A stretch of DNA of 64,000 bases from Dehalococcoidia bacterium (GTDB lineage Bacteria; Chloroflexota; Dehalococcoidia; Bin125): NCBI GenBank assembly GCA_963662615.2, contig CAXXSR010000001.1, positions 1,216,001-1,280,000 on the forward strand. The letters run 5' to 3'. Both the position numbers and the translations under genes were made by a program. The notes below the pieces were generated by a model that saw nothing but the letters and a program-made list of their open reading frames with translations, made no database searches and was not told the origin of the DNA. Shown here piece after piece: positions 7,700 to 57,219 of this stretch (its first letter is position 1; each line of letters begins with the position of its first letter).

Positions 7700-8323
7700 G
7701 TGCGCAGGCGCATGCCCGCCGTCGTCTTGGTGGGCGCGGTAGCTCTCCTGGTTGGCTGCGGCGGCGAGAGCGATGGCGCGCCTCCCATGGCGGGCGAAGC
7801 GGCCACACCGGAGCTTGAAGAGATCCCCGTGGAGCCGCTGCCGGACACGCTGCCGGAGCCGTTCATCTTCCGCGGCGATGAGCTGCAGGTGGAAGAGACG
7901 GCGGCGGAAGAGATTATCTACGTCGTGGAGCCGGGCGACTCGCTGGCGCTCATCGCCGAGGCGTTTGGGGTGAGCACCGCCGAACTCCAGCGTCTGAACG
8001 GGATTGCCGATCCGCGATTGCTGCGCGCCGGCGACGAGCTGCGCATTCCCGTCCTCCCCGGGACGGAGGCCGAGCGCATCGCCGCGACTCTTGACGAGGC
8101 GCAAGAGGAGTTCTCCGGCCCGCCACTGGGCGAGGAATATGTTATCCAGCCCGGCGACACGCTTTCCGCCGTCGCCCAACGCTTCGGGCTGGGGTGGCCG
8201 GAACTTGCCACCTATAACCGCCTCTCCGACTTTGAGGCCAACAACCTCACGGTGGGCTCCGTCCTCATCATTCCGCCGCCGAAGGAAGACGAAGAGGAAG
8301 AGGTTCAAGAGCCGCCGGGCTGA
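7700..8323 (+). CDS. LysM peptidoglycan-binding lipoprotein (two LysM domains, acidic)
   Basis: LLVGCGG lipobox; YVVEPGDSLALIAEAFGVS..L.RLNGI..LRAGDELRIP and YVIQPGDTLSAVAQRFG..LATYN..LTVGSVLIIP. Confidence 0.92.
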   Translation: MRRRMPAVVLVGAVALLVGCGGESDGAPPMAGEAATPELEEIPVEPLPDTLPEPFIFRGDELQVEETAAEEIIYVVEPGDSLALIAEAFGVSTAELQRLNGIADPRLLRAGDELRIPVLPGTEAERIAATLDEAQEEFSGPPLGEEYVIQPGDTLSAVAQRFGLGWPELATYNRLSDFEANNLTVGSVLIIPPPKEDEEEEVQEPPG

Positions 8324-23235: not shown

Positions 23236-24573
23236 CTACCGTCCCCTAGGGTTGACGACGTCGTTGACCGCGTCGCCCACCAGATTGAAAGAGAAGATCA
23301 GCACCGCCACCGTGACGCCCGGCACCAGCAGGAGATGCGGGTGCAGGTTGAAGGTGCTAGAGCCGCCAGCGTCCGCGATCATGGCGCCGAAGGAGGCGGT
23401 GGGCGGCTGAATGCCGAGGCCGAGGAAGGTGAGCCCGACCTCCGCACCCGCCGCGGCCCCCAGCGACGCGCTCACGCCCATGATGATCCAGGGCAGCACG
23501 CCCGGCAGGAGATGGCGGACGAGGATCCGTGGCGTGCCTGCCCCAATGGACTCCGCCGCCAGAATGAACTCCTGTTCCCGCAAGGCGAGCACCTGCGCGC
23601 GCACGAAGCGCGCCGTCAGCACCCACCCCAAGAAGGAAACGGCGACAAATAACAGGCTGATGTGATCGATCCCCTGGTCAATGAGGAAGGTCATGCCGAG
23701 GAAGTCGTCGATGGCGGCGATCCAGTCGGTCCACTGTTCGCGCAAGACAGCGCTGATCACGATCAGAACGAGCAGGCCGGGAATGGCCAGGAAGACGTCA
23801 CCGACGCGCATGATCACGGCGTCAACCCAGCCGCCCCGATACCCCGCCCAAAGTCCCAGCCCCAAGCCAAGGAAGGCATCGCCGAGCAGAAAGGCGAGAA
23901 TGCTGAAGATCAGCGTGGTGCGGGCCGAGAAGAGGGTGCGGCTGAACATGTCGCGGCCGTTGCGGTCGGTGCCGAAGAGGTGGCGCGAGGAGGGCCCTTG
24001 CAGCGTTTCATCCTCGCTGACGACGAGTAAGGTGCCAGCGGGCAGAACCGTCTCCTCGCGGAGGGGACTGAAGCGATCGGAGGGGCCCGGAATCGTGAGG
24101 AGGGTGAGTTCCGGCAGAACGGTCTCCTCCGTGAGCGGGCCGAAGCGATCGGCCACGGTGGGATTGAGCGCCGCGATGACGTCCACCGTGATGCCGTGCC
24201 GGGTGAGGAATGACGCCAGCGGCTCCACTTCCGTGCCCGCGAGCCGGACGGTGTCGCTGGTGCGGCGATTGTTGGCGACGATCTCCTCCAGGGAGGCGTC
24301 GTGGTCCTGGAGGAACGCGCCGATCGTTTCGCCTTCGTCCACGCGGTCGCGCGCGGCGAGATTGTTCGTTGTCGGGTCCTGCAGCCCTGTGGGCGCCCCG
24401 AAGGCGTCCAGCATGGTGTACGACCCCGCCCCATAGATGATGCAGATGAGGATGAGCGAGATCACGGCGAGCCGCTTCCGCAGCAGGCTCCGCAGAGCGC
24501 GCCGCCAGGGCGCCTTCCCGCGCGCCTCGGCCAGAGCGATTTCGATGTCGCCGCTACCGCCGGCGACCGTCAC
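23236..24573 (-). CDS. oppC: Peptide ABC transporter permease OppC/DppC with about 115-aa LysM-like insert
   Basis: HLFGTDRNGRD, EAA loop EFILAAESIGA, RHLLP, FLGLG, FNLVGDA; longer than usual because of an insert at aa ~74-189. Confidence 0.9.
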   Translation of the reverse strand: MTVAGGSGDIEIALAEARGKAPWRRALRSLLRKRLAVISLILICIIYGAGSYTMLDAFGAPTGLQDPTTNNLAARDRVDEGETIGAFLQDHDASLEEIVANNRRTSDTVRLAGTEVEPLASFLTRHGITVDVIAALNPTVADRFGPLTEETVLPELTLLTIPGPSDRFSPLREETVLPAGTLLVVSEDETLQGPSSRHLFGTDRNGRDMFSRTLFSARTTLIFSILAFLLGDAFLGLGLGLWAGYRGGWVDAVIMRVGDVFLAIPGLLVLIVISAVLREQWTDWIAAIDDFLGMTFLIDQGIDHISLLFVAVSFLGWVLTARFVRAQVLALREQEFILAAESIGAGTPRILVRHLLPGVLPWIIMGVSASLGAAAGAEVGLTFLGLGIQPPTASFGAMIADAGGSSTFNLHPHLLLVPGVTVAVLIFSFNLVGDAVNDVVNPRGR

Positions 24574-25556
24574 GAAGGCCTCCGGCCGAAGCGAATCCGG
24601 GGGTCAATGAAGATGTAGAGGATGTCCGTGGCCAAGTTGCCCAGCACGATCAACGTTGAGACAAGCAGAGTGAAGCCAAGCAGGACGTTGAAGTCGCGAT
24701 TGTTGATCGAGCGGAAGAGGAAGCTGCCCACGCCCGGGACGCCGTACAAGGTTTCGACGAAGATCGTGCCGGTGATCACCAAGACGATGCTGAGGACCAC
24801 GAATGTGCTGAGCGGCAGCATGGCGTTGCGGAGGACGTGCCGGTAGATCACCGTGCGCTCGCGCAGCCCTTTGGCTCGGGCCGTGCGGACGTAGTCCTCA
24901 TCCAGCACAGCGAGCACACTGATCCGCACGAAGCGAGCCATCCCCTTCAGCCCAGCCAGGGTCAGCGCGGTGACGGGAATGATGTAGGAGGCGGGGTCAC
25001 CGGGCGTCCAGACGGAGGGGACGGCGAAGCCGAAGAATCGGATCACATCGTCAAGCACGAAGATGGGCAGCCAGATCAGCAGCGGCATCAGCACCACCAC
25101 CGGGATGGCGTCGAAGACCATGAGGACGCCGATCGTAAAGGGGTCTTTCCATCTGCCCCGATTGAGCGCGGCGTACACCCCCAGGGGGATGCCGATTAGA
25201 TAGGTGAGCGCGAGCGAGATGAGGCCGATCTGGGCAGAGATCCAGATGCGCTCGCCGAGCAGTTCCTGAACAGACCGTTGAGGGCTGCGAAAGAAATACG
25301 AAGGGCCCAGGTCGCCCTCCGTGATCAGGTTCTTGGTGTAGCGGCCGAAGCGCTCGAAGAAGCCGCCCTTGAGCCCGAACTCCTCACGGATCGAGTCCGC
25401 GATCTCAGGGTCGGGCGTGCGCGTACCGGTGATGATGCGAACCGGATCCCCGGGGGCGAACTGGGTGAAGGCGAAGGTGATGAAGAGAACAGCGAAGAGA
25501 ATCAGCGGAACGAGCAGTAGCCGCCGCACGATGATGGGGAGCAGCCCGCCGGCCAC
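24570..25556 (-). CDS. oppB: Peptide ABC transporter permease OppB/DppB
   Basis: APGDP, GDLGPS, EDYVRTARAKGL, HVLRNA, IDPRIR. Confidence 0.93.
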   Translation of the reverse strand: MAGGLLPIIVRRLLLVPLILFAVLFITFAFTQFAPGDPVRIITGTRTPDPEIADSIREEFGLKGGFFERFGRYTKNLITEGDLGPSYFFRSPQRSVQELLGERIWISAQIGLISLALTYLIGIPLGVYAALNRGRWKDPFTIGVLMVFDAIPVVVLMPLLIWLPIFVLDDVIRFFGFAVPSVWTPGDPASYIIPVTALTLAGLKGMARFVRISVLAVLDEDYVRTARAKGLRERTVIYRHVLRNAMLPLSTFVVLSIVLVITGTIFVETLYGVPGVGSFLFRSINNRDFNVLLGFTLLVSTLIVLGNLATDILYIFIDPRIRFGRRPS

Positions 25557-25599: not shown

Positions 25600-27426
25600 C
25601 TAGTCGCTCAGGGTGATGAAGCGCAGGTAGGGGATCACCGAGCGCGGGGGAACGTAACCCTGCACGTACGGCTTCACCACTTCGTTCTTCTGCCCGTGGA
25701 AGAGCAGGAGCCAAGGCGCGTCGTCCACGATGATCCGCTCCACCTGGCGGTAAATCTCGATCCGCCGTTGCGGGTCTTGCTCTACTCGCGCTTGCTCCAG
25801 CAGCGTGTTGACTTCCGCATTGTCGTATGCGGGATTGTTCTGCAGCGAGCGGCCGTGGAAGAGCAGATCCAGGAAGTTTTCCGGATCGGGATAGTCGGCG
25901 CTCCAGCCCAGGCTGAACGCCTGGTAGAGCCCACGGTCCAGCTCAGAGAAGAAGGAGGCCGTTTCCACCTGCTGGATCTCGACCGCCAGCCCGAGATTCT
26001 GCTGCCACATATCCCGGACCGCCTCGATCAGCGCTCCGGGGGTCGCCCCCGCGCCCGAGACGGTCAGGCGGATGCGATCCAGCAGGGGGCTCCCCGCGTA
26101 GCTGGAGCCATCGAGCAGCGCCTTGGCTTGCGTCGGGTCGAAGGGCAGCCCGCGGAAGTCTGGGTCGTAGCCCGGCATGCCCGGGGGCAGGATCCCTTCC
26201 GCCACCACCACGACGTTCTGGAAGGTGATTTCAATAATCGCGCCCTTGTCGACTGCCATGGAGAAGGCCCGCCGCACGTCGCGGTCGTCGAAGGGGGGCT
26301 GATTGACGTTGAAGCCGATGTAGAACGTACTCAACTCGCTGCGGCTGACGAATTCGGCGTTGAGGGTCGAAGCCGGGTCCCTTGCCCGCTCAATGTCGTT
26401 GATGCCGATACCGGCAATATCCACCTCTTCGTTCTCATACTGCGTCAGCCCGCCACCCGCGAAGCGGATGCGGACCTCCTCAAGCTGTGCGGGGCCCAGG
26501 TGGTAGCGGTCCCAGGGAACCAGCGTCAGCCCTTCCCCCAACTCCCAGTTTCTCAACTGGAACGGGCCGGTCCCGATCGGGTCACGCGCCCAGCCTTCGG
26601 GATCGCGCTCCACCTGGTCGCGGTAGAGCACGTAGGCGGTGGGATAGGTGAGCTTCTGCAGGAAGTAGGGCTTGGGCTCGTCGATGGTGATCTCAACGGT
26701 GCGATCGTTGATCACCTGAATACCCGTGACTTCGGTCACGCCGCTGCGGCCGCGCGCGTAGTCCTTCAGCCCCACGATGTCGCCCAGATAGTCAATCGCC
26801 GTGGGCGAGAAGGTGTCCGGGGAGGCGTTGCGCTCAATGCTCCACTTCACGTCCTCCGCGCTGACGCGCGTGCTGCCGTCGTGGTAGAGAGCGTCGGGAC
26901 GGATCACGAACCGGTAGGTGACCGTGCCGTCCGCATTGAAGATCAGCTCCGGGATCTCCTCGGCGAGGTCCGCCACCACGTTGAGGTCCTGGTCCAGGGT
27001 GACGAGCCCGCCGAAGATCTCCACGACGTACTCGGCGGAGGTCACGTCGGTCGTCAGAGCCGGATCGAGCGTCAGCGGCTCTCCGCGGGCGAGCCGCAGC
27101 ACCCCGCTTTCGCGAACGGCCGGCGCCGCCCGCGCGGGTTCTTCCTCTGCACCAGCCGGCGCAGGGGGGGCCACCCCGTTCGCTTCCGCCGGCGCCTCCG
27201 CCGGAGCATCCGCCGGAGCCGCCGCTCCCTCCGCGTCTTCAGCGCGGTCCGCGCGCTCACCGCGCTCGGAGCGGGAATCGGACGTCTCGCTGTCCCCGTC
27301 TGAGTCGTCGCCGCCCCCACCGCAGGCCGCCGCGACCACCGCTACGACGAGCAGGAGGCTGAAGAGGCCCAGCCCCAGGCGGGCCCAATGTCGATCGGTT
27401 CGGAGTTCTCGCCCCAGGACGCTCAT
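25600..27426 (-). CDS. oppA: Peptide/nickel ABC substrate-binding lipoprotein (SBP family 5)
   Basis: AAACGG lipobox, TLDPA, PIGTGPF, PFDDRDVRRA, WSADYPDP. Confidence 0.92.
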   Translation of the reverse strand: MSVLGRELRTDRHWARLGLGLFSLLLVVAVVAAACGGGGDDSDGDSETSDSRSERGERADRAEDAEGAAAPADAPAEAPAEANGVAPPAPAGAEEEPARAAPAVRESGVLRLARGEPLTLDPALTTDVTSAEYVVEIFGGLVTLDQDLNVVADLAEEIPELIFNADGTVTYRFVIRPDALYHDGSTRVSAEDVKWSIERNASPDTFSPTAIDYLGDIVGLKDYARGRSGVTEVTGIQVINDRTVEITIDEPKPYFLQKLTYPTAYVLYRDQVERDPEGWARDPIGTGPFQLRNWELGEGLTLVPWDRYHLGPAQLEEVRIRFAGGGLTQYENEEVDIAGIGINDIERARDPASTLNAEFVSRSELSTFYIGFNVNQPPFDDRDVRRAFSMAVDKGAIIEITFQNVVVVAEGILPPGMPGYDPDFRGLPFDPTQAKALLDGSSYAGSPLLDRIRLTVSGAGATPGALIEAVRDMWQQNLGLAVEIQQVETASFFSELDRGLYQAFSLGWSADYPDPENFLDLLFHGRSLQNNPAYDNAEVNTLLEQARVEQDPQRRIEIYRQVERIIVDDAPWLLLFHGQKNEVVKPYVQGYVPPRSVIPYLRFITLSD

Positions 27427-47681: not shown

Positions 47682-49679
47682 ATGATCCGGGCCGGCCTGA
47701 GCCCCTGGCGCATGCGCGTAATCACGATAGTGCTCGTGGCCTTCGGCACCCTCCTCATCCTGCGGCTGGTGCAGGTCCAGATCTTGGAGCATCCCCGCTT
47801 CGAGCAGGAAGCCCGCGACATCCATTTTTGGACCCAGGAGATCCGCGGCCCTCGCGGCGCGATCCTCGACCGCAACGGCTTCCCTCTCGTCACCGGCATC
47901 GACACCTTCGAGATCCACGTCGATCGCGACGCCTGGGAACTAGAAGGCGGCAACGAGCGTCTCGCCGTAGAGAAGCTCTCGCACCGCCTGGGCGCCTCGC
48001 AAGAGCAGATCCGGGCGATCGTCGACTCCGGCGGCGGTCGCGACGTCCTGCTGGCGCTGAACGTCCCGTACGGCCTGGGCGAGGCCATCATCGCGGAGGG
48101 CCTGCCAGGCGTGAAGGTGACTTCCGCAAGCCTAAGACGCTATGGCGAAGGCGCCTTGGCCAGCCAGATTCTCGGCTTTGTGGGCCGGGACAACGTGGGC
48201 CTGGCCGGCGTGGAGTTCAACTTCGACTCCGTCCTCAGTGGGAAGCCCGGCCGCCTCGTCTACGAACGCGACAGTCTGGGCAACCCCATCCCCTTCGGCG
48301 CGCGGGGGATGGAGCCCGTGCAGCCGGGCGCCGACCTCGTCCTCACCATCGATCGCACGCTGCAGCGTATCGCGGAGGAGCACCTCGCCGCCGCCCTGGA
48401 GAAGACCGGCGCTCGCGGCGGCGCCATCCTGATGATGGAGCCGCACACAGGCGACATTCTCGCCATCGCCTCCTCTCCCTCGTTTGACGTCACGAACCCG
48501 AACCTGGGCGATCCGGCCCTGGACCTCTCCCTCTTCCGCAATCGCACCGTCACGGACGTGTATGAACCCGGATCGGTGTTCAAGGTCGTGACGATGGCAG
48601 CCGCCATCGACGCTGGCGTGGTCACACCGGACACCACCTTCGTGGACACCGGCGCCATCGTCGTCGGCGCCAGCACCATCCGAAATTTCGACCTCTCCTT
48701 CCACGGCCGCCAGACCATGACGCAGGTCCTGCAACGATCGCTGAACACGGGCGCCGCCTGGGTCACGCAGCAGTTAGGCGCCGATCTCTTCTACTGGTAT
48801 CTGCGGCAGTTCGGCTTCAACAAGTCAACCAACTCCGGCTTCGCCGGGGAGGCGAGCGGGATCGTCAAAGAGCCCGGGAACCTGTTCTGGTCGCCGGTGG
48901 ACCTGGCGACGAACTCCTATGGCCAGGGGATCTCTGTGACCCCTCTCCAAATCGTGCGGGCCATGGCGGTGATCGCGAACGGCGGCGACCTGGTCCGGCC
49001 ACGCATCGTCCGGGCGGTGATCACGCAAGAGGGGGTCCGGGCGGTGCCCACGGTGATCGAGGGCCGGGCTATCCGCGAGGACACTGCCGCGCAGCTGCGT
49101 GTGATGATGCAGGCTGTCGTGGACGGCGTGGCCGGGCATCCCGCCCAGACGCCCGGCTGGCCGGTGGCCGGCAAATCCGGCACGTCCGATGTGGCGGAGG
49201 ACGGCGCGTACCTGGAAGGGGAGTCGATCGCCTCCTTCACGGGCTTCGCCCCCGCCGACGATCCTCGCGTGGTCGTCCTGGTGAAGCTGGACCGGCCACA
49301 GGGCGAGATCTTCGGTGGAATTATCGCCGCGCCGGTCTTCTCCGCCGTGCTCCGTGACGCGCTCCCCTACTTGGGCGTGCCGCCGTCGGCGTATGTGGCG
49401 GAGCCGAGCCTGTTCGAGCCCGTCCCGGAAGAGACCGGGAGCGCCGACGACGCGGCCGCGCCCACCGACGCGGCGGGCGCGGCGCCGGACGCCGATGCCG
49501 GTGAGGCCGACGCCGGGGAGGCGGACGCCGCCGTCGAACCGGTCGCCGAGAGCGAAGCCGCCGGCACGCCCATCGACGCCCTCGAAGACGCCCCCGCTCT
49601 CGATCTCCAGCTCGCCGAGCCGATCGACGCCGCAACTGTGGAGGACACGGCGCCGATCGAGAGTGCAGGGACTCAATGA
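47682..49679 (+). CDS. ftsI: Class B penicillin-binding protein (FtsI-like) with acidic C-terminal tail
   Basis: RGAILDRNG, YEPGSVFK (SxxK), SLN (SxN), KSGT. Confidence 0.93.
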   Translation: MIRAGLSPWRMRVITIVLVAFGTLLILRLVQVQILEHPRFEQEARDIHFWTQEIRGPRGAILDRNGFPLVTGIDTFEIHVDRDAWELEGGNERLAVEKLSHRLGASQEQIRAIVDSGGGRDVLLALNVPYGLGEAIIAEGLPGVKVTSASLRRYGEGALASQILGFVGRDNVGLAGVEFNFDSVLSGKPGRLVYERDSLGNPIPFGARGMEPVQPGADLVLTIDRTLQRIAEEHLAAALEKTGARGGAILMMEPHTGDILAIASSPSFDVTNPNLGDPALDLSLFRNRTVTDVYEPGSVFKVVTMAAAIDAGVVTPDTTFVDTGAIVVGASTIRNFDLSFHGRQTMTQVLQRSLNTGAAWVTQQLGADLFYWYLRQFGFNKSTNSGFAGEASGIVKEPGNLFWSPVDLATNSYGQGISVTPLQIVRAMAVIANGGDLVRPRIVRAVITQEGVRAVPTVIEGRAIREDTAAQLRVMMQAVVDGVAGHPAQTPGWPVAGKSGTSDVAEDGAYLEGESIASFTGFAPADDPRVVVLVKLDRPQGEIFGGIIAAPVFSAVLRDALPYLGVPPSAYVAEPSLFEPVPEETGSADDAAAPTDAAGAAPDADAGEADAGEADAAVEPVAESEAAGTPIDALEDAPALDLQLAEPIDAATVEDTAPIESAGTQ

Positions 49680-51043
49680 TCAGCCCGCGCGCCCTGGCAC
49701 TGGCGCTCAACGGTCTCCTCAAGAATCCGTGCGCCGATCTCTCCGCCGCGCCCTACAACGACATCGTCATGGACTCCCGCAAGGTCAAGCCTGGCGACCT
49801 GTTCGTGGCCCTGCGCGGCGAACACACCGACGGGCACAAGTTCCTGGACGACGCCGTCCAGCGCGGTGCCACCGGGCTGCTGACGCGCGCCGCCCCCCCG
49901 ACCTTGCCTGCGTCCGTCACGGCCTTCCTGGTGTACGACACCTTGCAGGCCCTGCAAGAGGCCGCCAGGCAATGGCGTGCGACCCTTCCTGCCAAGGTCG
50001 TGGGGATCACCGGCAGCGTGGGCAAGACAACCGTGCGCGAGGCCCTCAGCCAGGTGCTCCGCCGTCGCTATGCCACCTTTGAAAGTCCACGCAACTTCAA
50101 CAGTGAGATCGGCCTGCCGCTGGCGCTGCTGGGCTTGAGTCCCCAGCATGAATGGGCCGTCGTGGAACTCGGTCCCTACGACCTCCAGGAGATGCAGCTG
50201 CTCTGCGACATCGCCCGGCCGGATGTCGGTGTCGTCACCAACGTCGGGCCCACACATCTGGAGCGGTACGGATCGCTGGACGCCATTGAAGAGGCGAAGG
50301 GCACGTTGCCCGCGTCGCTGGGGCCAAACGGGCTCGCCGTGCTCAATGCCGACGACGAGCGGACGCTGCGTATGCGCCGCCGTACCCAGGCGCGGGTGCT
50401 CACGTTCGGGCTGGGCCGGGACGCGGACGTGCGCGCCGACGACGTGCAGGCACACGGCCTGGACGGACTGACCTTCACCCTCCACGTGCACAAAGAGGCC
50501 GTCGCCGTGCGCACGCCGCTCGCCGGCGCGCACCACGTGATCACCGCGCTGGCGGCGGCGACCGTCGCAGCGGGCGCCGGCTTCAACGCCACCGAGATCG
50601 CGGAGGCGCTGGCGACGCTCCGTGCGGGGAGTCGGCTGAAGCCGCGCCGCTCCTTCTCCGGCGCCCTCATCTTGGACGACACCTATAACGCCGCGCCCGT
50701 CTCCATGAAGGCCGCGCTCGATTTCCTGGCGCAGATCCCAGGGCGCCGCGTCGCCGTGCTGGGCGACATGCTGGAGCTGGGTAGCGAGGAAGAGGCCGGT
50801 CACCGCGAGGTGGGCGCCTACGCCGTGGGCCGTTGCGACCGCATCGTCGCCGTGGGCGAGCGGGCGCGCACCATCGCCAACGGCGCCTGGGACGCCGGCC
50901 ACACCCAAATTCAGTGGTTCCAGGACAAGGAGAGCGCCACCGCCACTCTGCTTCAGGAGGTCGGCGCGGACGATGTCGTCCTCATCAAAGCATCGCACGG
51001 TCTCGCCTTGGAGACGGTGGTGGAAGCGCTGGTGAATCCATGA
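49676..51043 (+). CDS. murF: UDP-MurNAc-tripeptide--D-Ala-D-Ala ligase
   Basis: DSR, ITGSVGKTT, NFNSEIGLP, DDTYNA, LGDMLELG, KASHG. Confidence 0.95.
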   Translation: MISPRALALALNGLLKNPCADLSAAPYNDIVMDSRKVKPGDLFVALRGEHTDGHKFLDDAVQRGATGLLTRAAPPTLPASVTAFLVYDTLQALQEAARQWRATLPAKVVGITGSVGKTTVREALSQVLRRRYATFESPRNFNSEIGLPLALLGLSPQHEWAVVELGPYDLQEMQLLCDIARPDVGVVTNVGPTHLERYGSLDAIEEAKGTLPASLGPNGLAVLNADDERTLRMRRRTQARVLTFGLGRDADVRADDVQAHGLDGLTFTLHVHKEAVAVRTPLAGAHHVITALAAATVAAGAGFNATEIAEALATLRAGSRLKPRRSFSGALILDDTYNAAPVSMKAALDFLAQIPGRRVAVLGDMLELGSEEEAGHREVGAYAVGRCDRIVAVGERARTIANGAWDAGHTQIQWFQDKESATATLLQEVGADDVVLIKASHGLALETVVEALVNP

Positions 51044-52002
51044 CGGCCTTCTCCCTCACCACCGCCGGCTTGGCCTTTCTGCTGGCGCTGGCTATTGGGC
51101 GGCCGCTCATCATCTGGCTGCGTGCGCGTGACATGGGCAAAGCCATCAGTGACGAAGGGCCGGCGACGCATCATCGCAAGGCCGGCACGCCCACCATGGG
51201 CGGCCTCATGATCTTCGTCGTCGTCGCCATCCTGACCCTGGCCACCAACGTGGTTGGACGAGAATCGATCCTGCTGCCGCTAGCTGGAATCGTCGTGCTG
51301 GGCGGGATCGGCGCGCTGGACGACCTGGGCAGCATCGTGGGGCGCGCCCCCGGGGGGCTCAGTTGGCGGCTGAAGGTGGTCCTGCTGCTGCTCTTCGCGC
51401 TGGGGGCGGCGCTGGTCCTGTATTTCGCGCTGGATGTCAAGAGCGTCAACGTGCCCTGGGCCGGCCGGTTCTCCTTGGGTCCCGGCTACATCGTCATCGC
51501 GGTCGTCACCATCTTCGCCACGACCGTCTCCGTCGCCATCTCTGACGGCCTCGACACGCTGGCGGGCGGCACCGTGGCTATCGCCTTCGCTGCCTTCGGC
51601 GTCATCGCGGTCGGGCAGGAGCAGGACTTCTTGGTACGGTTCTGCTTCACGACGGTCGGCGCCGTCCTGGGCTTCCTCTGGTACAACGCGCATCCGGCGC
51701 AGCTCTTCATGGGCGACATGGGCGCGCTGGCGCTCGGCGGCACGCTCGGCATCGTTGCGCTGATGACGGGACACTGGCTGCTGCTGCCCGTGATCGGCAT
51801 CGTCTTCCTGATCGAGGCGCTGAGTGACGTCATTCAAGTCGGCTATTTCAAGCTCTCGGGTGGCAAGCGGGTGTTCCGCATGGCGCCCATTCACAACCAC
51901 TTCGAGCTGATCGGTTGGTCGGAGCCTCAGGTGGTCACCCGATTTTGGCTGCTGGGCATTGCGGGCGCGATCGTGGGCGTGGCCTTGGCGCTGCAGGTCT
52001 AG
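51040..52002 (+). CDS. mraY: Phospho-MurNAc-pentapeptide transferase
   Basis: KAGTPTMGG, DGLD, FMGD, MAPIHNHFE. Confidence 0.96.
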   Translation: MTAFSLTTAGLAFLLALAIGRPLIIWLRARDMGKAISDEGPATHHRKAGTPTMGGLMIFVVVAILTLATNVVGRESILLPLAGIVVLGGIGALDDLGSIVGRAPGGLSWRLKVVLLLLFALGAALVLYFALDVKSVNVPWAGRFSLGPGYIVIAVVTIFATTVSVAISDGLDTLAGGTVAIAFAAFGVIAVGQEQDFLVRFCFTTVGAVLGFLWYNAHPAQLFMGDMGALALGGTLGIVALMTGHWLLLPVIGIVFLIEALSDVIQVGYFKLSGGKRVFRMAPIHNHFELIGWSEPQVVTRFWLLGIAGAIVGVALALQV

Positions 52003-52028
52003 CGGGTTCGCGGAGGTGAAGAGCCGTG

Positions 52029-53480
52029 ATGAGCGCACCGTCCACCAAACATGAACCGCGGTCGTTCCGCGGGCTCCGCGCCGGCGTCGTGGGGCTGGGC
52101 CTAGAGGGGCAGGACATCGTGCGCTTCCTGCATCGGGAGGGCGCCACCGAGATCGTGGTCTCGGACCGGAAACCGGCGGACGCGCTGCAAAGCCAAGTCC
52201 AGGCCCTGGCCGGCATCCCCTTCGTCCTGGAGGCCGGCGGCAACGACACGAGCCTGGCCGAGCGTGTCGATGTGCTCTTCGTGAGTCAGGGCGTCCCCGC
52301 GAATCTGCCGCTGCTGCAGGAGGCGCAAGCGCGCGCCCTCCCCGTGACCGCGATGATGCGGCTGTTCCTCCAACGCTGTCCCGCGCCCGTGACGGGCATC
52401 ACGGGGAGCGCCGGTAAGACGACCACGACCGCGCTAGTGGGCGAGATTCTTCGCGCCGCCGGCACTCCGGTGTTTGTGGGCGGCAACATTGGCGTGGGCC
52501 TGCTCGAAGCGCTGCCGCAGATCACAGCGAAGATGACCGTCGTCGTGGAGATCAGTCACACACAGCTGGCGCGCACGGACCGCAGTCCCCACGTGGCCGC
52601 CGTGCTCAACGTGACGCCCAACCACCTTGACCAGTTCCGCTGGGATGCCTACGTGGACCTCAAGCGGAATCTCGTGCGGTACCAAACCACCGACGACATC
52701 GTGGTGCTCCCCATCGACAACGAGACGGCATACGCGCTCGGGGCCGACACGCCTGCGCGGCCGTACTTCTTCGGACTGGAGGCGCTGCCGGGGCCGGGCG
52801 CCACCGTCCGCGACGGCGCCATTGTCTGGGAGCCGGCCGGGGGCGGCGGCGGCTCCCAGAACGTGCTGCCGATCGCTGCCGTGCAACTGCCGGGCGAACA
52901 CAACCTGCGCAACATCCTGGCGGCTGTGGCGATTTGCGGCGCCGGGGGCGCTCCGCCGCAGGCGATGGCCGCCGCGATCGCCGGATTCACGGGCGTTCCC
53001 CATCGCCTCCAAACCGTGGCGGTGGCCGCCGGCGTGCGCTTCGTGGACGACTCCATCGCTACGGCGCCGGAGCGCACCGTGGCCGCCCTCCGCGCGATCG
53101 CGGGGCCAATCGTGCTGCTGCTCGGGGGGCGTGAGAAGCGCCTGCCGCTGCAGCCGCTGGCGCGCGAGGCGCTAGGCACGGTCCGAACGGTCATCTGCTT
53201 CGGCGAGGCCGGCCCTGGCTTCGCCGCATTCCTGCGTGGGGAATGGTCCGGTCGCGCCGACGCGCCGTCGATCCGAGAAACCTCCGACCTGCCCGAGGCC
53301 GTTGAGGTGGCCCGCCGTGCGTCCCAGCCGGGCGATGCCGTCCTCCTCTCGCCGGCCGCCACCTCGTTCGACGCCTATGAGAATTTCGTCGCACGCGGCG
53401 ACCATTTTGCGGCGCTGGTGGCAGCCCTGCCGTCCGCTCGCAGCGGCGCCAGACGGGAGGCCGATGATGGCCCGCGCTGA
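52029..53480 (+). CDS. murD: UDP-MurNAc-L-Ala--D-Glu ligase
   Basis: ITGSAGKTTTT, GGNIG, PNHLD, HRL, DDSIAT, LSPAATSFD. Confidence 0.94.
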   Translation: MSAPSTKHEPRSFRGLRAGVVGLGLEGQDIVRFLHREGATEIVVSDRKPADALQSQVQALAGIPFVLEAGGNDTSLAERVDVLFVSQGVPANLPLLQEAQARALPVTAMMRLFLQRCPAPVTGITGSAGKTTTTALVGEILRAAGTPVFVGGNIGVGLLEALPQITAKMTVVVEISHTQLARTDRSPHVAAVLNVTPNHLDQFRWDAYVDLKRNLVRYQTTDDIVVLPIDNETAYALGADTPARPYFFGLEALPGPGATVRDGAIVWEPAGGGGGSQNVLPIAAVQLPGEHNLRNILAAVAICGAGGAPPQAMAAAIAGFTGVPHRLQTVAVAAGVRFVDDSIATAPERTVAALRAIAGPIVLLLGGREKRLPLQPLAREALGTVRTVICFGEAGPGFAAFLRGEWSGRADAPSIRETSDLPEAVEVARRASQPGDAVLLSPAATSFDAYENFVARGDHFAALVAALPSARSGARREADDGPR

Positions 53481-54708
53481 CGTCCTGAGCGTCCCCATCA
53501 TTGGCCGGCGGCGTGAAGAGACGGGCCGACACATCGCCGGCGCGCCCGACTGGCCCCTGATCGCCACGGCTGTCGCGTTGACGCTTCTCGGCCTGATCTT
53601 CGTCTTCAGCTCCTCGTTCGCCGTCGGCGAGCGCCTCCACGGCGACCCGCACCACTTCGCCATCCGGCAGCTCGCCGGCGCCGGGCTGGGCCTTCTGGCG
53701 TTCGTCTTCTTCGCCTCGATCGACTATCGGCGGCTGCGCGCTTGGAGCCCGCTGCTGATGGCGCTGGCCATCCTGGGGTTGCTGGCGGTGCTCGTGCCCG
53801 GCATTGGCGTGGAGCAGAACGGCGCGCGACGCTGGGTGACCGTGGTGGGCTCGCTCCCGCCGGTGCAGCCGTCGGAGTTCGCCAAACTGGCGATCGTGAT
53901 CTACGTGGCCGCCTGGCTGGCCTCGCGGGGCGACGCGATTCGTCACGTCACCCTTGTCGTGGTGCCGTTTTCCATCGTCGTCGGGCTGGTCGGTTTTCTC
54001 ATCATGGCGGAGCCGGATCTGGGCACCGCAATCATGATCTCTCTTCTCGCCGGCGCCATGTTCTTTGTGGCCGGCGCCGCCCTGCGGCACATCTTCGTGC
54101 TGACCGTGCTGGGCGGAAGCGTGCTGTTTGGCATCATTGCCATCTTCGGTTACGGGCTGAACCGCTTCACCCAGTTCATCTCGGCGGAATCCAACCCGGA
54201 AGCGGGCGGCTTCCAAATCCTGCAGCTGCTCATCGCCCTGGGCAGCGGTGGCTTGAGCGGCGTCGGACTGGGCGAGAGCCGGCAGAAGTTCTTCTACGTT
54301 CCCTCCGCCCACACCGACGGCGTCTTCGCCATCATCGGCGAAGAGATCGGCTTCGTCGGCGCCGTGCTCGTCCTTCTCCTGTTTGCGTTCTTTGCCTACC
54401 GCGGCATTCGCACCGCGCAGCGCGCCCCCGACACCTTCGGCGCCCTCCTAGCCACTGGCGTCGTCTGTTGGATCAGCTTGCAGGCGTTCCTCAACATCGG
54501 CGGGATCACCCGCACCATTCCGCTGACCGGCATCCCCTTGCCGTTCGTGTCGTTTGGTGGTTCCGCTCTCGTCGCCACACTCGCGGCGACGGGCCTGTTA
54601 GTCAGCGTCTCTCGCTTCGCTCTACAGGAGGAGCCAAAGGAAAAGAAGCCGCAACAGCGCAAGCGCGACTACGTAGAGCAAGCGCCTCAATGGGAGGAAG
54701 CGGATTGA
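53464..54708 (+). CDS. ftsW: SEDS peptidoglycan polymerase FtsW
   Basis: NGARRW, QPSEFAK, EPDLGT, HTD, GEEIG, TGIPLPFVSFGGS. Confidence 0.95.
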   Translation: MMARADVLSVPIIGRRREETGRHIAGAPDWPLIATAVALTLLGLIFVFSSSFAVGERLHGDPHHFAIRQLAGAGLGLLAFVFFASIDYRRLRAWSPLLMALAILGLLAVLVPGIGVEQNGARRWVTVVGSLPPVQPSEFAKLAIVIYVAAWLASRGDAIRHVTLVVVPFSIVVGLVGFLIMAEPDLGTAIMISLLAGAMFFVAGAALRHIFVLTVLGGSVLFGIIAIFGYGLNRFTQFISAESNPEAGGFQILQLLIALGSGGLSGVGLGESRQKFFYVPSAHTDGVFAIIGEEIGFVGAVLVLLLFAFFAYRGIRTAQRAPDTFGALLATGVVCWISLQAFLNIGGITRTIPLTGIPLPFVSFGGSALVATLAATGLLVSVSRFALQEEPKEKKPQQRKRDYVEQAPQWEEAD

Positions 54709-54751
54709 TGGGCGGCGTCTGTCGGGGTGTGCAGGCTGCGGAGGGCCTGGA

Positions 54752-55843
54752 ATGAGGCTCCTCTTGGGCGGCGGCGGGAGCGGCGGGCACGTCTTTCCTG
54801 CGCTGGCGGTTGCCAGCGCGCTCAAGGAAGGGATCTCGGAGAGCTTGGATCTGCTGTTCGTGGGAACCGACACCGGCATGGAGGCCGGCTTGGCGCGCGA
54901 GGCCGGCGTGCCCTACCGCGCGGTGGCATCGCGCCCCCTGCGCGGCCGCCTTCCCTTCAGTCAGGCGTGGTCCGCTTTGACCATCGTCGCAGGCGTGTGG
55001 GAGGCGCTTCGCATCACGCGCCGGTTCCGGCCCAACGTCATCTTCGTGACCGGCGGTCACGTCAGCGTGCCCATCGGCATCGCCGCGGCGCTGACACGGC
55101 GGCCCCTCGTCCTCTTCCAGCCCGACGTCGATCCGGGCTGGGCGACCCGCTTGCTGGTCCCCATCGCCACGCGCGTCTGCGCGACCGACGCCGGCTCCCT
55201 CAGGCGGCTGCCCGCGCGCAAATCCGTGGCCACCGGCTATCCCTTGCGCCCCATCTTCTACGATCTTGACCGGCCCATGGCCCGGGCGCGCTTCCAGCTG
55301 AACGGCAGCCCGGCCATCCTCGTGGCCGGCGCCGTCCAGGGGGCGCGCCGCATCAACGACGCAATTGACCGCGACCTGGAGCGCTGGCTCGCCCTCGCCC
55401 AGATCCTGCACGTGACTGGACCTCTCGATGCGCGGCGGATGAACGAGCGCCGCGAGGCCCTGCCGGCGGCCCTGCAGCATCGCTATCAGGTCTATGAGTA
55501 CTTGGGCGATGACTTGCCTGTGGCGATGGCCGCGTGCGACCTGGCGGTGTCCCGAGCGGGCGCCTCCGTACTGGGCGAGTACCCCGCCGCGAAGCTGCCG
55601 GCCATCTTGGTGCCGCTCCCGAGCGCCGGCGCCCACCAGCGCGACAACGCCGCGGTCTTGGAACGGGCCGGCGCGGCCTTGATCGTGGAGGACACAGAGC
55701 TGCCCCAGCGGCTCCTGTCCACGGCCACCGCGCTGCTCGCAGATCGCGCCGGTCTCGAGAAGATGCGTGACAACGCCGCCGCGATCGCGCACCCGGACGC
55801 CGCGCGCCGGATCGCCCAAGTGCTGTGGGAGGTCCGGCGATGA
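54752..55843 (+). CDS. murG: Lipid II GlcNAc transferase
   Basis: GGGSGGHVFP, TGGHVS, SRAGAS, HQRDNA. Confidence 0.95.
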   Translation: MRLLLGGGGSGGHVFPALAVASALKEGISESLDLLFVGTDTGMEAGLAREAGVPYRAVASRPLRGRLPFSQAWSALTIVAGVWEALRITRRFRPNVIFVTGGHVSVPIGIAAALTRRPLVLFQPDVDPGWATRLLVPIATRVCATDAGSLRRLPARKSVATGYPLRPIFYDLDRPMARARFQLNGSPAILVAGAVQGARRINDAIDRDLERWLALAQILHVTGPLDARRMNERREALPAALQHRYQVYEYLGDDLPVAMAACDLAVSRAGASVLGEYPAAKLPAILVPLPSAGAHQRDNAAVLERAGAALIVEDTELPQRLLSTATALLADRAGLEKMRDNAAAIAHPDAARRIAQVLWEVRR

Positions 55844-57219
55844 CGGCGCCACAGCACGTGCACTTTGTCGGCATCGGCGGCATCCATATGAGCGCCGTCG
55901 CCGCCATCCTCCTCGCCGACGGCGTCCGCGTCAGCGGATCGGATCTGACCGCCGGCCACCTGGTCGAGGCGCTGCGCGCGGAGGGCGCCCAGATCAACAT
56001 CGGGCATGACGCCGCCCACGGCGCCGGCGCAGACCTCGTGGTTCGCAGCTTCGCCGTCCCAGACGACAACCCCGAAGTTCTCGCGGCGAAGCGGGGCGGG
56101 GTCGAGGTGCTGACGCGCGCGCAGATGGTGGCGCGCATCGCCGCGCCCCGTAGCGCGCTCACCGTGGCCGGCAGCCACGGCAAGAGCACCAGCGCCACCA
56201 TGCTCACCCTGATCCTGCGCGAGGCCGGTCTCGACCCGACCTACATCCTGGGCGCTGAATGCGCCGACCTGGAACAGCACGGGGCCCGGGGGCGGGGCCC
56301 GCACATCGTCCTGGAGGCCGACGAGTACGGCCGCGCCTTCCACGAATACCGACCCGGCGTCGCCGTGATCACCAACGTGGAGCGCGATCACCTGGACTAC
56401 TACGGCACGGACGCGGCCCTGACCGACGCATTTCTTCACTATGCGCAGACGCTCACGCCGGGCGGGTCGCTAATCGTCGGGGCTGAGTCGCCGTGTGCGG
56501 TTCGCGTCGCCGACCGCGCCGCCGCGGACCGCAGCGACGTCAAGGTACAGTCATTCGGGTTAGGCCCGGATCGGGATTGGGGCGCGCTCGATCTGCAGGA
56601 ACAGACCGAGGCGACGGTGTTCCGTCCCGTCCATGAGGAGGAGGAGCTGGGGGTCATCCGCCTTCGCGTTCCCGGCGCGTACAACGTGCGGAACGCCTTG
56701 GCCGCCATGGCGGCCGCGCACGAGGTGGGCGCCGGCTTCGCCGCGGCGCAGCAAGCCTTGGAACACTTCGGCGGCGTCCGTCGTCGCTTCGAGCTGCAAG
56801 GCGAAGCCCGCGGCATCGCCGTCGTGGACGATTACGCCCATCATCCCACGGAGATCGCGGCGACACTCGCGGCAGCGCGTTCGCGCTACCCCGGGCGCCG
56901 GCGCGTAGTTCTCTTTCAGCCCCATACGTACAGCCGCTCGTCCTATCTCCTCGCCGATTTTCGCCGCTGCTTCCACGACGCTGATGCGCTCTTCGTCACC
57001 GATACGTACGCGGCCCGTGAAGAGCCCGGCGCGGGCCTTACCGCCGCGGACCTCGCTGCACAGATCGACGACCCCCAGGCGATCCACGCCGGCTCGCTGG
57101 GTGAGGCGGTGACCCAGGTGGCCAAGGCGCTCCGCGCCGGTGATCTGCTCATCACCATGGGCGCCGGCGACGTGGAGAAGACGGGGCCGCAGGTGCTCGC
57201 ACGGCTGGAGGCCTCATGA
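55840..57219 (+). CDS. murC: UDP-MurNAc--L-Ala ligase
   Basis: HFVGIGGIHMS, AGSHGKST, EADE, DHLD, DDYAHHP, FQPH. Confidence 0.96.
   Translation: MTAPQHVHFVGIGGIHMSAVAAILLADGVRVSGSDLTAGHLVEALRAEGAQINIGHDAAHGAGADLVVRSFAVPDDNPEVLAAKRGGVEVLTRAQMVARIAAPRSALTVAGSHGKSTSATMLTLILREAGLDPTYILGAECADLEQHGARGRGPHIVLEADEYGRAFHEYRPGVAVITNVERDHLDYYGTDAALTDAFLHYAQTLTPGGSLIVGAESPCAVRVADRAAADRSDVKVQSFGLGPDRDWGALDLQEQTEATVFRPVHEEEELGVIRLRVPGAYNVRNALAAMAAAHEVGAGFAAAQQALEHFGGVRRRFELQGEARGIAVVDDYAHHPTEIAATLAAARSRYPGRRRVVLFQPHTYSRSSYLLADFRRCFHDADALFVTDTYAAREEPGAGLTAADLAAQIDDPQAIHAGSLGEAVTQVAKALRAGDLLITMGAGDVEKTGPQVLARLEAS

Follow-up and report, generated by a model that had tools for sequence, protein, structure and literature searches.

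Within a 64,000-nucleotide stretch of the metagenome-assembled genome of an uncultured Dehalococcoidia bacterium (Chloroflexota; GenBank assembly GCA_963662615.2, contig CAXXSR010000001.1, positions 1,216,001 to 1,280,000; this whole stretch is hereafter the window), an OppC-type permease of an ATP-binding cassette (ABC) importer is encoded on the reverse strand, and the loop between its first and second transmembrane helices (TM1 and TM2) carries an insert of ~115 extra residues. Judged by profile-profile comparison, the insert contains a divergent LysM module, which is present in the corresponding permeases throughout one Dehalococcoidia family and is doubled in the genome studied here. The permease gene and the pieces of its insert, as located by a hidden Markov model (HMM) of the relatives' single module, by an AlphaFold2 (AF2) model and by sequence and structure comparison, are as follows (window coordinates):

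23236..24573, reverse strand: OppC-type (PepT-family) ABC importer permease, an open reading frame (ORF) of 445 amino acids with a GTG start
24412..24474, reverse strand: TM1, residues ~34-54 (hydropathy segment 26-60; OppC_N match at residues 22-47)
24256..24351, reverse strand: N1, an extra LysM-like N-half, residues 75-106, with strand 1 and two helices (single-module HMM, AF2)
24088..24255, reverse strand: inner complete module, N2+Ca, residues 107-162 (single-module HMM, orthologue match, AF2, VIA-align)
24007..24078, reverse strand: Cb, an extra C-half, residues 166-189, with the conserved OppC flank 'TLQGPSS' directly after it (single-module HMM)
24025..24152, no strand assigned: direct DNA repeat encoding both C-halves, 24025-24080 and 24097-24152 (repeat search, period 72 nt)

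The permease and its enlarged first outer loop

The original prediction, made from the DNA sequence alone, had identified the gene as an OppC-type permease, and this was borne out by Pfam, in which both the BPD_transp_1 core (E 3.8e-31; 108.7 bits, cut-off 26.4; residues 236-443) and the OppC_N first helix (26.1 bits, cut-off 23.9; residues 22-47) scored above their cut-offs, as well as by sequence matches to solved chains (E. coli OppC 8z21_B, E 4.9e-34; M. tuberculosis Rv1282c 8j5q_C, E 1.4e-33). All 15 listed NCBIfam equivalog models remained below cut-off, the best being Opp4C with 220.9 bits against a cut-off of 350, so NCBIfam assigns no substrate to the permease. The partners of an Opp importer (a second permease, a family-5 solute-binding protein (SBP) and two oligo_HPY ATPases) are all present in the source genome (G000), the OppD/F-type ATPase pair being represented by two oligo_HPY matches at C1:855831-857317, non-adjacent and ~380 kb from the permease genes. 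The genome contains one OppC_N match and one OppD/F pair, and its family relatives contain 6 to 74 matches to the permease. Since the OppC_N match is single, the module-bearing OppC appears to be the sole one in the genome, which appears to have retained just one Opp/Dpp-type importer.

Between TM1 (query ~16-48) and the 'GTD..GRD' block (query 190-195 onward) lie ~140 residues, compared with 20-29 in the solved chains. The N-terminal 33 residues of the protein contain 7 Lys and Arg, and the TM1-TM2 loop contains 9 Lys and Arg versus 23 Asp and Glu; the position of the loop between TM1 and TM2 matches that in solved OppCs by sequence alignment. This charge pattern, together with the homology to solved OppCs, places the loop outside the membrane. 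As read from sequence, a cytoplasmic N-terminus thus precedes TM1 and the insert is in the first outward-facing loop, where the original prediction had put it. A second insertion relative to 8j5q_C (residues ~277-303) is shared by OppCs of the class outside the family, and was therefore set aside as unlinked to the LysM-like module.

Translation of 23989-24384 on the reverse strand reproduced the ~115 extra residues in the four pieces that had been quoted, as identical strings and in the same order: N1, N2 and two C-halves. The flanks had been said to be adjacent in ordinary OppC, and they are ~5-6 residues apart in the six best-matching non-family OppCs of the class, all of which lack the module (6/6; e.g. 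'...DPNAQNLSVESRLQGPSWEHLLGTD'). The similarity of the C-halves at the DNA level was likewise recovered, with 75% identity over 56 nt at a spacing of 72 nt, or 24 codons. Over the full 24 codons the C-halves share 42/72 nt (random in-frame 24-codon pairs from the same gene, up to 5000: mean identity 0.317, maximum 0.542). The N-halves are offset by 35 codons and agree at 52/105 nt (0.319 +/- 0.044 and a maximum of 0.457 among up to 2000 random pairs), so that both repeats are more alike than chance would give. The possibility that N1 came from a different LysM gene was set aside, because the orthologous start of the single module in the nearest genera matches the first 13 residues of N1, and because N1 and N2 are more alike in nucleotides than any random in-frame pair.

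A divergent LysM module and its history in the family

A phmmer search with the insert against 1.84 billion representatives returned eight matches at E <= 0.001. Four of these are multi-LysM proteins with 3, 6, 9 and 11 Pfam LysM units, and one is an OppC; the other three (P0013, P0014 and P0020) are long repetitive proteins and were regarded as spurious. When 29 single modules were compared with 29 LysM units cut from the four multi-LysM proteins, hhalign assigned a probability of 96.4% (P 1.4e-9, score 43.9), and an end-to-end alignment covered LysM positions 1-45 with a probability of 91.1%. Control scores were 6.8 for the reversed alignment and 12.6 for the best of 20 column shuffles. Compared with LysM, strand 1 of the module is followed by ~4 additional residues and strand 2 is preceded by 11, a number that falls to 7 in most members. 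The most conserved positions across the family are signature positions, Glu (42/42), Leu (43/44), Asn (44/44) and Pro (44/44), which correspond in the alignment to the LysM 'G-D/E-T-L' motif opening helix 1 and to the Asn that follows helix 2. The module is thus a divergent LysM, with homology holding by profile-profile comparison. Single-profile and single-sequence searches of the PDB sequences returned nothing significant: the module profile placed the unrelated HtsA first (E 0.27), followed by the LysM domains of MltD (0.36) and of a chitinase (0.37); the inner module matched two Volvox chitinase LysM chains alone, at E ~1; and N1 with the shared strand gave no match at E <= 10. The ESM Atlas offered nothing usable for the doubled insert or for the single module of P0003.

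AF2 gave an unusable model for the whole protein (11-row alignment, mean predicted local distance difference test score (pLDDT) 39.6), and a model with a mean pLDDT of 60.5 for the 135-residue loop (45-row alignment). In the latter, the inner module (loop 45-100, protein 107-162) reaches pLDDT 67-81 and consists of a strand, two helices, a short helix and a strand (E45-48, H57-64, H68-74, H76-82 and E96-99 in loop numbering). N1 is modelled as helices at loop 22-29 and 33-43 with pLDDT 52-58, and Cb lacks a strand, at pLDDT ~63. A Foldseek-independent structure comparison with VIA-align against 48,161 chains listed almost exclusively LysM domains in its top rows, all of them on model residues 42-102 with a root mean square deviation (rmsd) of 1.9-2.8. 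They include 4lzh_A (Z 5.5, rmsd 2.3 over 52), 4xcm_B (Z 4.9, rmsd 1.9 over 49), AtlA 2mkx (Z 4.8, 51/51 residues), the Volvox chitinase 5k2l (Z 4.7, 49/49) and MltD 1e0g (Z 3.3, 47/48). The uniformity of this list, in which small targets are covered in full, fits the sequence evidence, and the AF2 model predicts the beta-alpha-alpha-beta fold of LysM for the inner module alone, at moderate model confidence. The proposal that the pieces are LysM-like is therefore upheld by phmmer, hhalign and VIA-align on the AF2 model; prediction of the loop structure gave a LysM-like inner module and left the outer halves at low confidence. A co-fold of N1 (loop 11-45) with Cb (loop 101-135), run without controls, scored 0.20 and 0.19, where 0.32 is the mark to reach, and counts neither way.

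An orthologous loop with a single module was matched over its full length in 64/65 genomes of the same Dehalococcoidia family, the sole miss being a genome that is 79% complete. Among 60 fetched loci, the loop pattern was recognised in 52 and missed in 8; the loop is 75-84 amino acids long in 51 of the 52, and 135 amino acids long solely in the source genome. On inspection, two of the eight pattern-missed loci have a single module; the other six belong to other families of the class and are the OppCs that match best there. A separate scan yielded 22 further single-module loci, from records titled 'MAG: Dehalococcoidia bacterium' or 'Chloroflexota bacterium' (MAG, metagenome-assembled genome), and a region-restricted protein search yielded 11 clusters, ten of which are 388-residue permeases that share ~58% identity overall and whose loop is 31 + 24 residues shorter. 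Scored by genus, one module is present in 9/10 genera and the doubled form in one, and other families of the class have none. In a maximum likelihood tree of the permease core (49 distinct rows, 245 columns, loop excluded, rooted on three module-less OppCs) the family forms a single clade (SH-like approximate likelihood ratio test (SH-aLRT) 100), and the source genome is nested among three single-module genera (SH-aLRT 86). The phyletic distribution and the tree together indicate a single gain of the module, in the ancestor of the family, and a doubling that arose later, within the genus. A comparison of copy numbers among orthologues had been proposed with the original prediction, and the resulting series of none, one and doubled brings out two points absent from it: one module is ancestral for the whole family, and the doubling alone is special to this genome. 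A 3439-nt contig (L062) whose title assigns it to a Gammaproteobacteria MAG contains an orthologue with 61% identity to the permease, and is probably mis-binned.

The single-module HMM matched the doubled loop three times: in N1 (protein residues 78-103, profile 8-34, 16.0 bits), in N2+Ca (residues 109-160, profile 5-56, 53.6 bits) and in Cb (residues 167-189, profile 39-61, 16.4 bits). The inner module is the counterpart of the relatives' single module, and an orthologue loop matches window 24085-24264 contiguously, with its C-terminal third (residues 48-79) also matching window 23986-24081 at 66% identity. Given three profile matches with complementary break points, the order of the loop is half-whole-half, nested in sequence, which would be the order expected if one copy had been inserted in the helix-2/strand-2 loop of another. 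The permease's cluster at 90% identity comprises three full-length sequences of 445 amino acids from several contigs. One of them, P0022, shares 90% identity with the permease and retains the four pieces, all in frame. By count from the alignment, it differs at 2/30 residues in N1, 12/33 in N2, 2/24 in Ca and 4/24 in Cb. N1 is not decaying, given just 2/30 changes, and the sequences show a doubled form that is derived and maintained. A scan of metagenome contigs with the loop for intermediates (N-N-C, N-C-C) gave 412 pattern matches, none of which was confirmed.

Proposed role of the module and alternative explanations

The explanation that we favour, and consider fairly probable as a whole, is that a divergent LysM module was gained in the OppC loop of the family, was doubled in one genus, and binds glycan or the cell wall. 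The short outward TM1-TM2 loop of the family ancestor would have acquired one module with a beta-alpha-alpha-beta core, in which strand 1 is followed by ~4 extra residues and strand 2 is preceded by a 7-11-residue extension (a predicted short helix), and an internal duplication in the source genus would then have produced an N-half, a complete module and a C-half. The module would be situated just outside the membrane and under the wall, binding glycan that contains N-acetylglucosamine (GlcNAc), either peptidoglycan or its fragments; such binding would keep the importer in place at the wall, or where the wall is being turned over, and the doubling would raise avidity, like the extra LysM units of wall hydrolases. 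In a study of such modules, a single LysM module binds peptidoglycan, binding rises with the number of modules, and the recognised motif is GlcNAc-X-GlcNAc (PMC4083421). Wall or glycan binding at the outer face of the membrane is plausibly the most likely role, on the grounds of the outward loop, the retained LysM signature residues and the presence of genes for peptidoglycan synthesis. The genome contains MraY, 5 transpeptidase-domain matches and 24 canonical LysM matches above cut-off, and the organism thus has genes to make peptidoglycan. In the window, cell-wall genes, probably a division and cell wall cluster, occupy ~48400-57200 on the forward strand and include:

48420-49352, forward strand: transpeptidase match
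51277-51768, forward strand: MraY
49997-50761, 52884-53105 and 55855-57207, forward strand: matches to the Mpl model, read as Mur-ligase paralogues

The last assignment is a judgement from position, the several Mpl-model matches standing beside mraY and the transpeptidase gene. The genome is small, with about a dozen LysM-bearing frames. One of these, in the window at 7700-8323 (forward strand), encodes a 207-residue predicted lipoprotein ('LVGCGG') with two canonical LysM domains above the Pfam cut-off; another, outside the window at C1:100481-100609 (forward strand), has a LysM match of 58.8 bits in a frame with one in-frame TAG, and could be a broken gene or two adjacent genes.

Several results weigh against the favoured explanation. 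At the level of sequence, Pfam LysM (PF01476) scored the insert at 14.2 bits (E 0.045), below its cut-off of 20.9, the OppC gene was not among the frames listed by a genome-wide PF01476 scan, and of 11 single modules compared with Pfam at permissive E (up to 10), three reached LysM (best 0.0055) and four Phage_tail_X. At the level of structure, Foldseek found no match in the PDB at E <= 0.001, LysM entries being common in its weak list, and the VIA-align Z values (maximum 5.5) are under the level that the tool calls distinctive, low values being expected for a fold of ~50 residues. The AF2 model shows no strand pairing between N1 and Cb (pLDDT 52-64), the placing of the orthologues' C-halves on Cb rather than Ca possibly blurring the signal. 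In addition, N1 extended by 'TSDTVRLAGTEV' can be aligned to complete canonical LysM units from P0018, P0016 and P0019, so that N1 could borrow the first strand of N2. With regard to function, the two loops that bear the family-specific extensions presumably line the sugar groove of a canonical LysM, and ligand binding could for this reason be altered or lost. Finally, in this genome, which is 93.6% complete, LdcA (Peptidase_S66) had no match, and Mpl (TIGR01081) reached at best 190.8 bits against a cut-off of 388.7.

It is possible, though in our judgement doubtful, that only the inner module folds, and that N1 and Cb are leftovers of two partial tandem duplications (35 and 24 codons), serving at most as linkers or as an extra strand or helix. 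Tandem duplication of short segments is the commonest mechanism, and confident structure in the AF2 model is confined to residues ~107-162. The C-halves are also more alike than the N-halves, as if they were younger: in their first 18 codons 40/54 nt and 14/18 amino acids agree, compared with 39/69 nt and 8/23 amino acids in the N-halves. However, this difference in nucleotide identity is non-significant (Fisher p 0.058), and both pairs are close to saturated at third positions (identity 11/18 in the C-halves and 11/23 in the N-halves; 0.40 by chance), so that unequal ages of the N and C repeats are unsupported. Moreover, the right end of the N-repeat and the left end of the C-repeat coincide within ~3 residues, with complementary profile ranges (8-34 and 39-61); two independent events would give coinciding ends by luck alone, whereas a nested copy requires them. 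N1 is furthermore the best-conserved piece between the two known lineages (2/30 changes compared with 12/33 in N2), unlike a decaying remnant.

The main functional rival to wall binding concerns the SBP, and involves the two genes that lie upstream of the OppC gene on the same strand:

24570..25556, reverse strand: OppB-like permease partner, 328 amino acids (Pfam BPD_transp_1, E 2.4e-35, and BPD_transp_1_N)
25600..27426, reverse strand: family-5 SBP, 608 amino acids (Pfam SBP_bac_5, E 1.3e-71)

The GTG start of OppC and the stop of OppB overlap by 4 bases (GTGA, window 24570-24573), as is typical of translational coupling, and an identical overlap was judged from coordinates in the relative L065. 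The order SBP, OppB, OppC recurs in one relative, where it is followed by three ORFs that are tig-, clpP- and clpX-sized, the relative's ORFs being judged by size. NCBIfam OppA and DppA models scored far under their cut-offs on the SBP, whose N-terminal 110 residues are lipoprotein-like at the start ('...AAACGGGG') and continue in an acidic, Ala/Pro-rich linker of ~75 residues that may be a long tether through the wall. By analogy with the periplasmic P2 loop of MalF, described below, the module might be a docking platform for this cognate SBP, helping a tethered lipoprotein to find the sole Opp-type translocator, which we regard as unlikely. Such docking would suit an insert in an outward loop near what we take to be the SBP docking site of PepT-type permeases, an SBP in the same operon that is lipoprotein-like with a long linker, in a gene order that recurs in a relative, and family extensions in loops that presumably line the groove, which would fit a changed ligand. 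On the other hand, the invariant or near-invariant positions of the module are LysM signature positions, and we know of no LysM domain acting as a protein-docking module in an importer.

We consider it rather improbable that the doubled loop is an overlapping tandem, in which N1 would take the strand-1 region of N2 ('TVRLAGTEVEP') as its last strand to give a near-canonical LysM of 42 residues in front of a family-type module, leaving Cb as a surplus strand. The alignments with whole LysM units described above speak for such an arrangement, phmmer aligning loop 13-54 with the LysM at 101-142 of P0018 and likewise with P0016 and P0019, with 'TSDT' shared; so do the LysM HMM built here, which matches loop 16-48 to positions 3-35, and the second N1 helix of the AF2 model, which continues straight into the N2 strand. 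Yet the Gly aligned to the Gly/Gln-type turn of the LysM units is Arg in P0022 ('VRLARAEV'), the N2 segment is clearly orthologous to strand 1 of the single module, and the retention of Cb would be left unexplained.

A similarly poor prospect is given to a true LysM-inside-LysM fold that would tether the apparently sole peptide importer to peptidoglycan and capture turnover peptides or muropeptides at their source. The original prediction had suggested nested LysM modules, and the nesting stands as an order of sequence (N-half, complete module and C-half in the profile matches). A second LysM formed by N1 and Cb would fit that order, and the AF2 model, from an alignment not ideal for this question, gave the low pLDDT and the missing strand pairing noted above. 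The prediction's further idea of muropeptide recycling gains nothing from the genome, which gave no match for LdcA and none above the cut-off for Mpl. As an artefact of assembly or reading frame the doubled insert has a negligible chance, and this was rejected because the frame is open and the 445-residue doubled architecture is kept in P0022 and the other cluster members, three sequences from several contigs, one of them just 90% identical.

LysM units are familiar from adhesins, receptors and secreted enzymes, where they bind the wall or chitin; OppC, for its part, is familiar as a plain membrane subunit. Full-text literature searches, whose coverage leaves out most subscription journals, found no report of LysM in the loop of an ABC importer permease among the papers listed, judged by titles and abstract openings, and nothing on nested insertion of LysM domains; as far as can be told, the LysM in an OppC outer loop is new. 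If the favoured explanation is true, the module would let a transporter by itself grip the cell wall, or substrates that bear glycan. Because Pfam scores the module below cut-off, standard annotation is blind to it, and the proteins are labelled merely 'ABC transporter permease'. The half-whole-half order makes the loop a clear-cut candidate case of domain insertion into a duplicate of itself, which proteins seldom undergo in evolution, and the natural series of none, one and doubled could show what the module contributes to transport. The weight of the finding is limited by its reliance, as to function, on sequence and predicted structure from uncultured organisms.

Comparison with known importers and LysM proteins

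With solved OppC and DppC chains (E. coli OppC 8z21_B and DppC 8z1v_B; M. tuberculosis Rv1282c 8j5q_C and DppC 8wd9_C) the permease has in common the six-helix core, the OppC_N helix and the 'GTD..GRD' block, and the operon partners are the same, an OppB-like permease and a family-5 SBP. It differs from them in its TM1-TM2 loop, ~140 residues with LysM-like modules rather than ~20-29, and in the distant ATPase genes. The inner module in turn shares its AF2-predicted fold with the LysM domains of E. faecalis AtlA (2mkx), T. thermophilus NlpC/P60 (4uz2/4xcm), E. coli MltD (1e0g) and Volvox chitinase (5k2l), at an rmsd of 1.9-2.6 A over 47-51 residues, along with two conserved features, the acidic-Thr-Leu motif that opens helix 1 and the Asn that follows helix 2. 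Unlike these, it scores below the Pfam cut-off, has two extensions, and is sited in a loop of a polytopic membrane protein, not in a secreted enzyme. The doubled copy is interleaved, whereas the LysM units of AtlA are arranged as beads on a string (PMC4083421).

A domain within a domain is represented among the VIA-align rows by the entry for the lectin MoCVNH3 (5c8o, Z 4.5). In this lectin, LysM is reportedly a guest inside a CVNH domain, which would show that LysM, its ends being side by side, tolerates insertion into a loop of another domain. MoCVNH3 is soluble and its host domain has a different fold; here the hosts would be a membrane permease and possibly another LysM.

Among importers, E. 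coli MppA-OppBCDF takes up murein tripeptide and is a precedent for Opp import of wall peptides, with specificity arising there from a dedicated SBP and not from the permease; LdcA and Mpl, the downstream markers of that recycling route, were not found in the source genome. In the maltose importer, the permease MalF carries a large folded periplasmic domain, P2, in an outward loop, which grips the maltose-binding protein. P2 is likewise a domain in an outward loop of an ABC permease, but it is not a LysM and belongs to a different loop and a different permease family. Closer to the present case, OppC-type permeases of Rhodocyclales, Uliginosibacterium, Caldilineaceae and Anaerolineae (L086-L095, L097 and L103) have a conserved insert of ~100 residues in the TM1-TM2 loop, with the pattern '...HPPQ.IHLFD...F.PYV...DP.TL...', which by eye is unlike the LysM module. 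These inserts mark the outer loops of OppC as hot spots for insertions.

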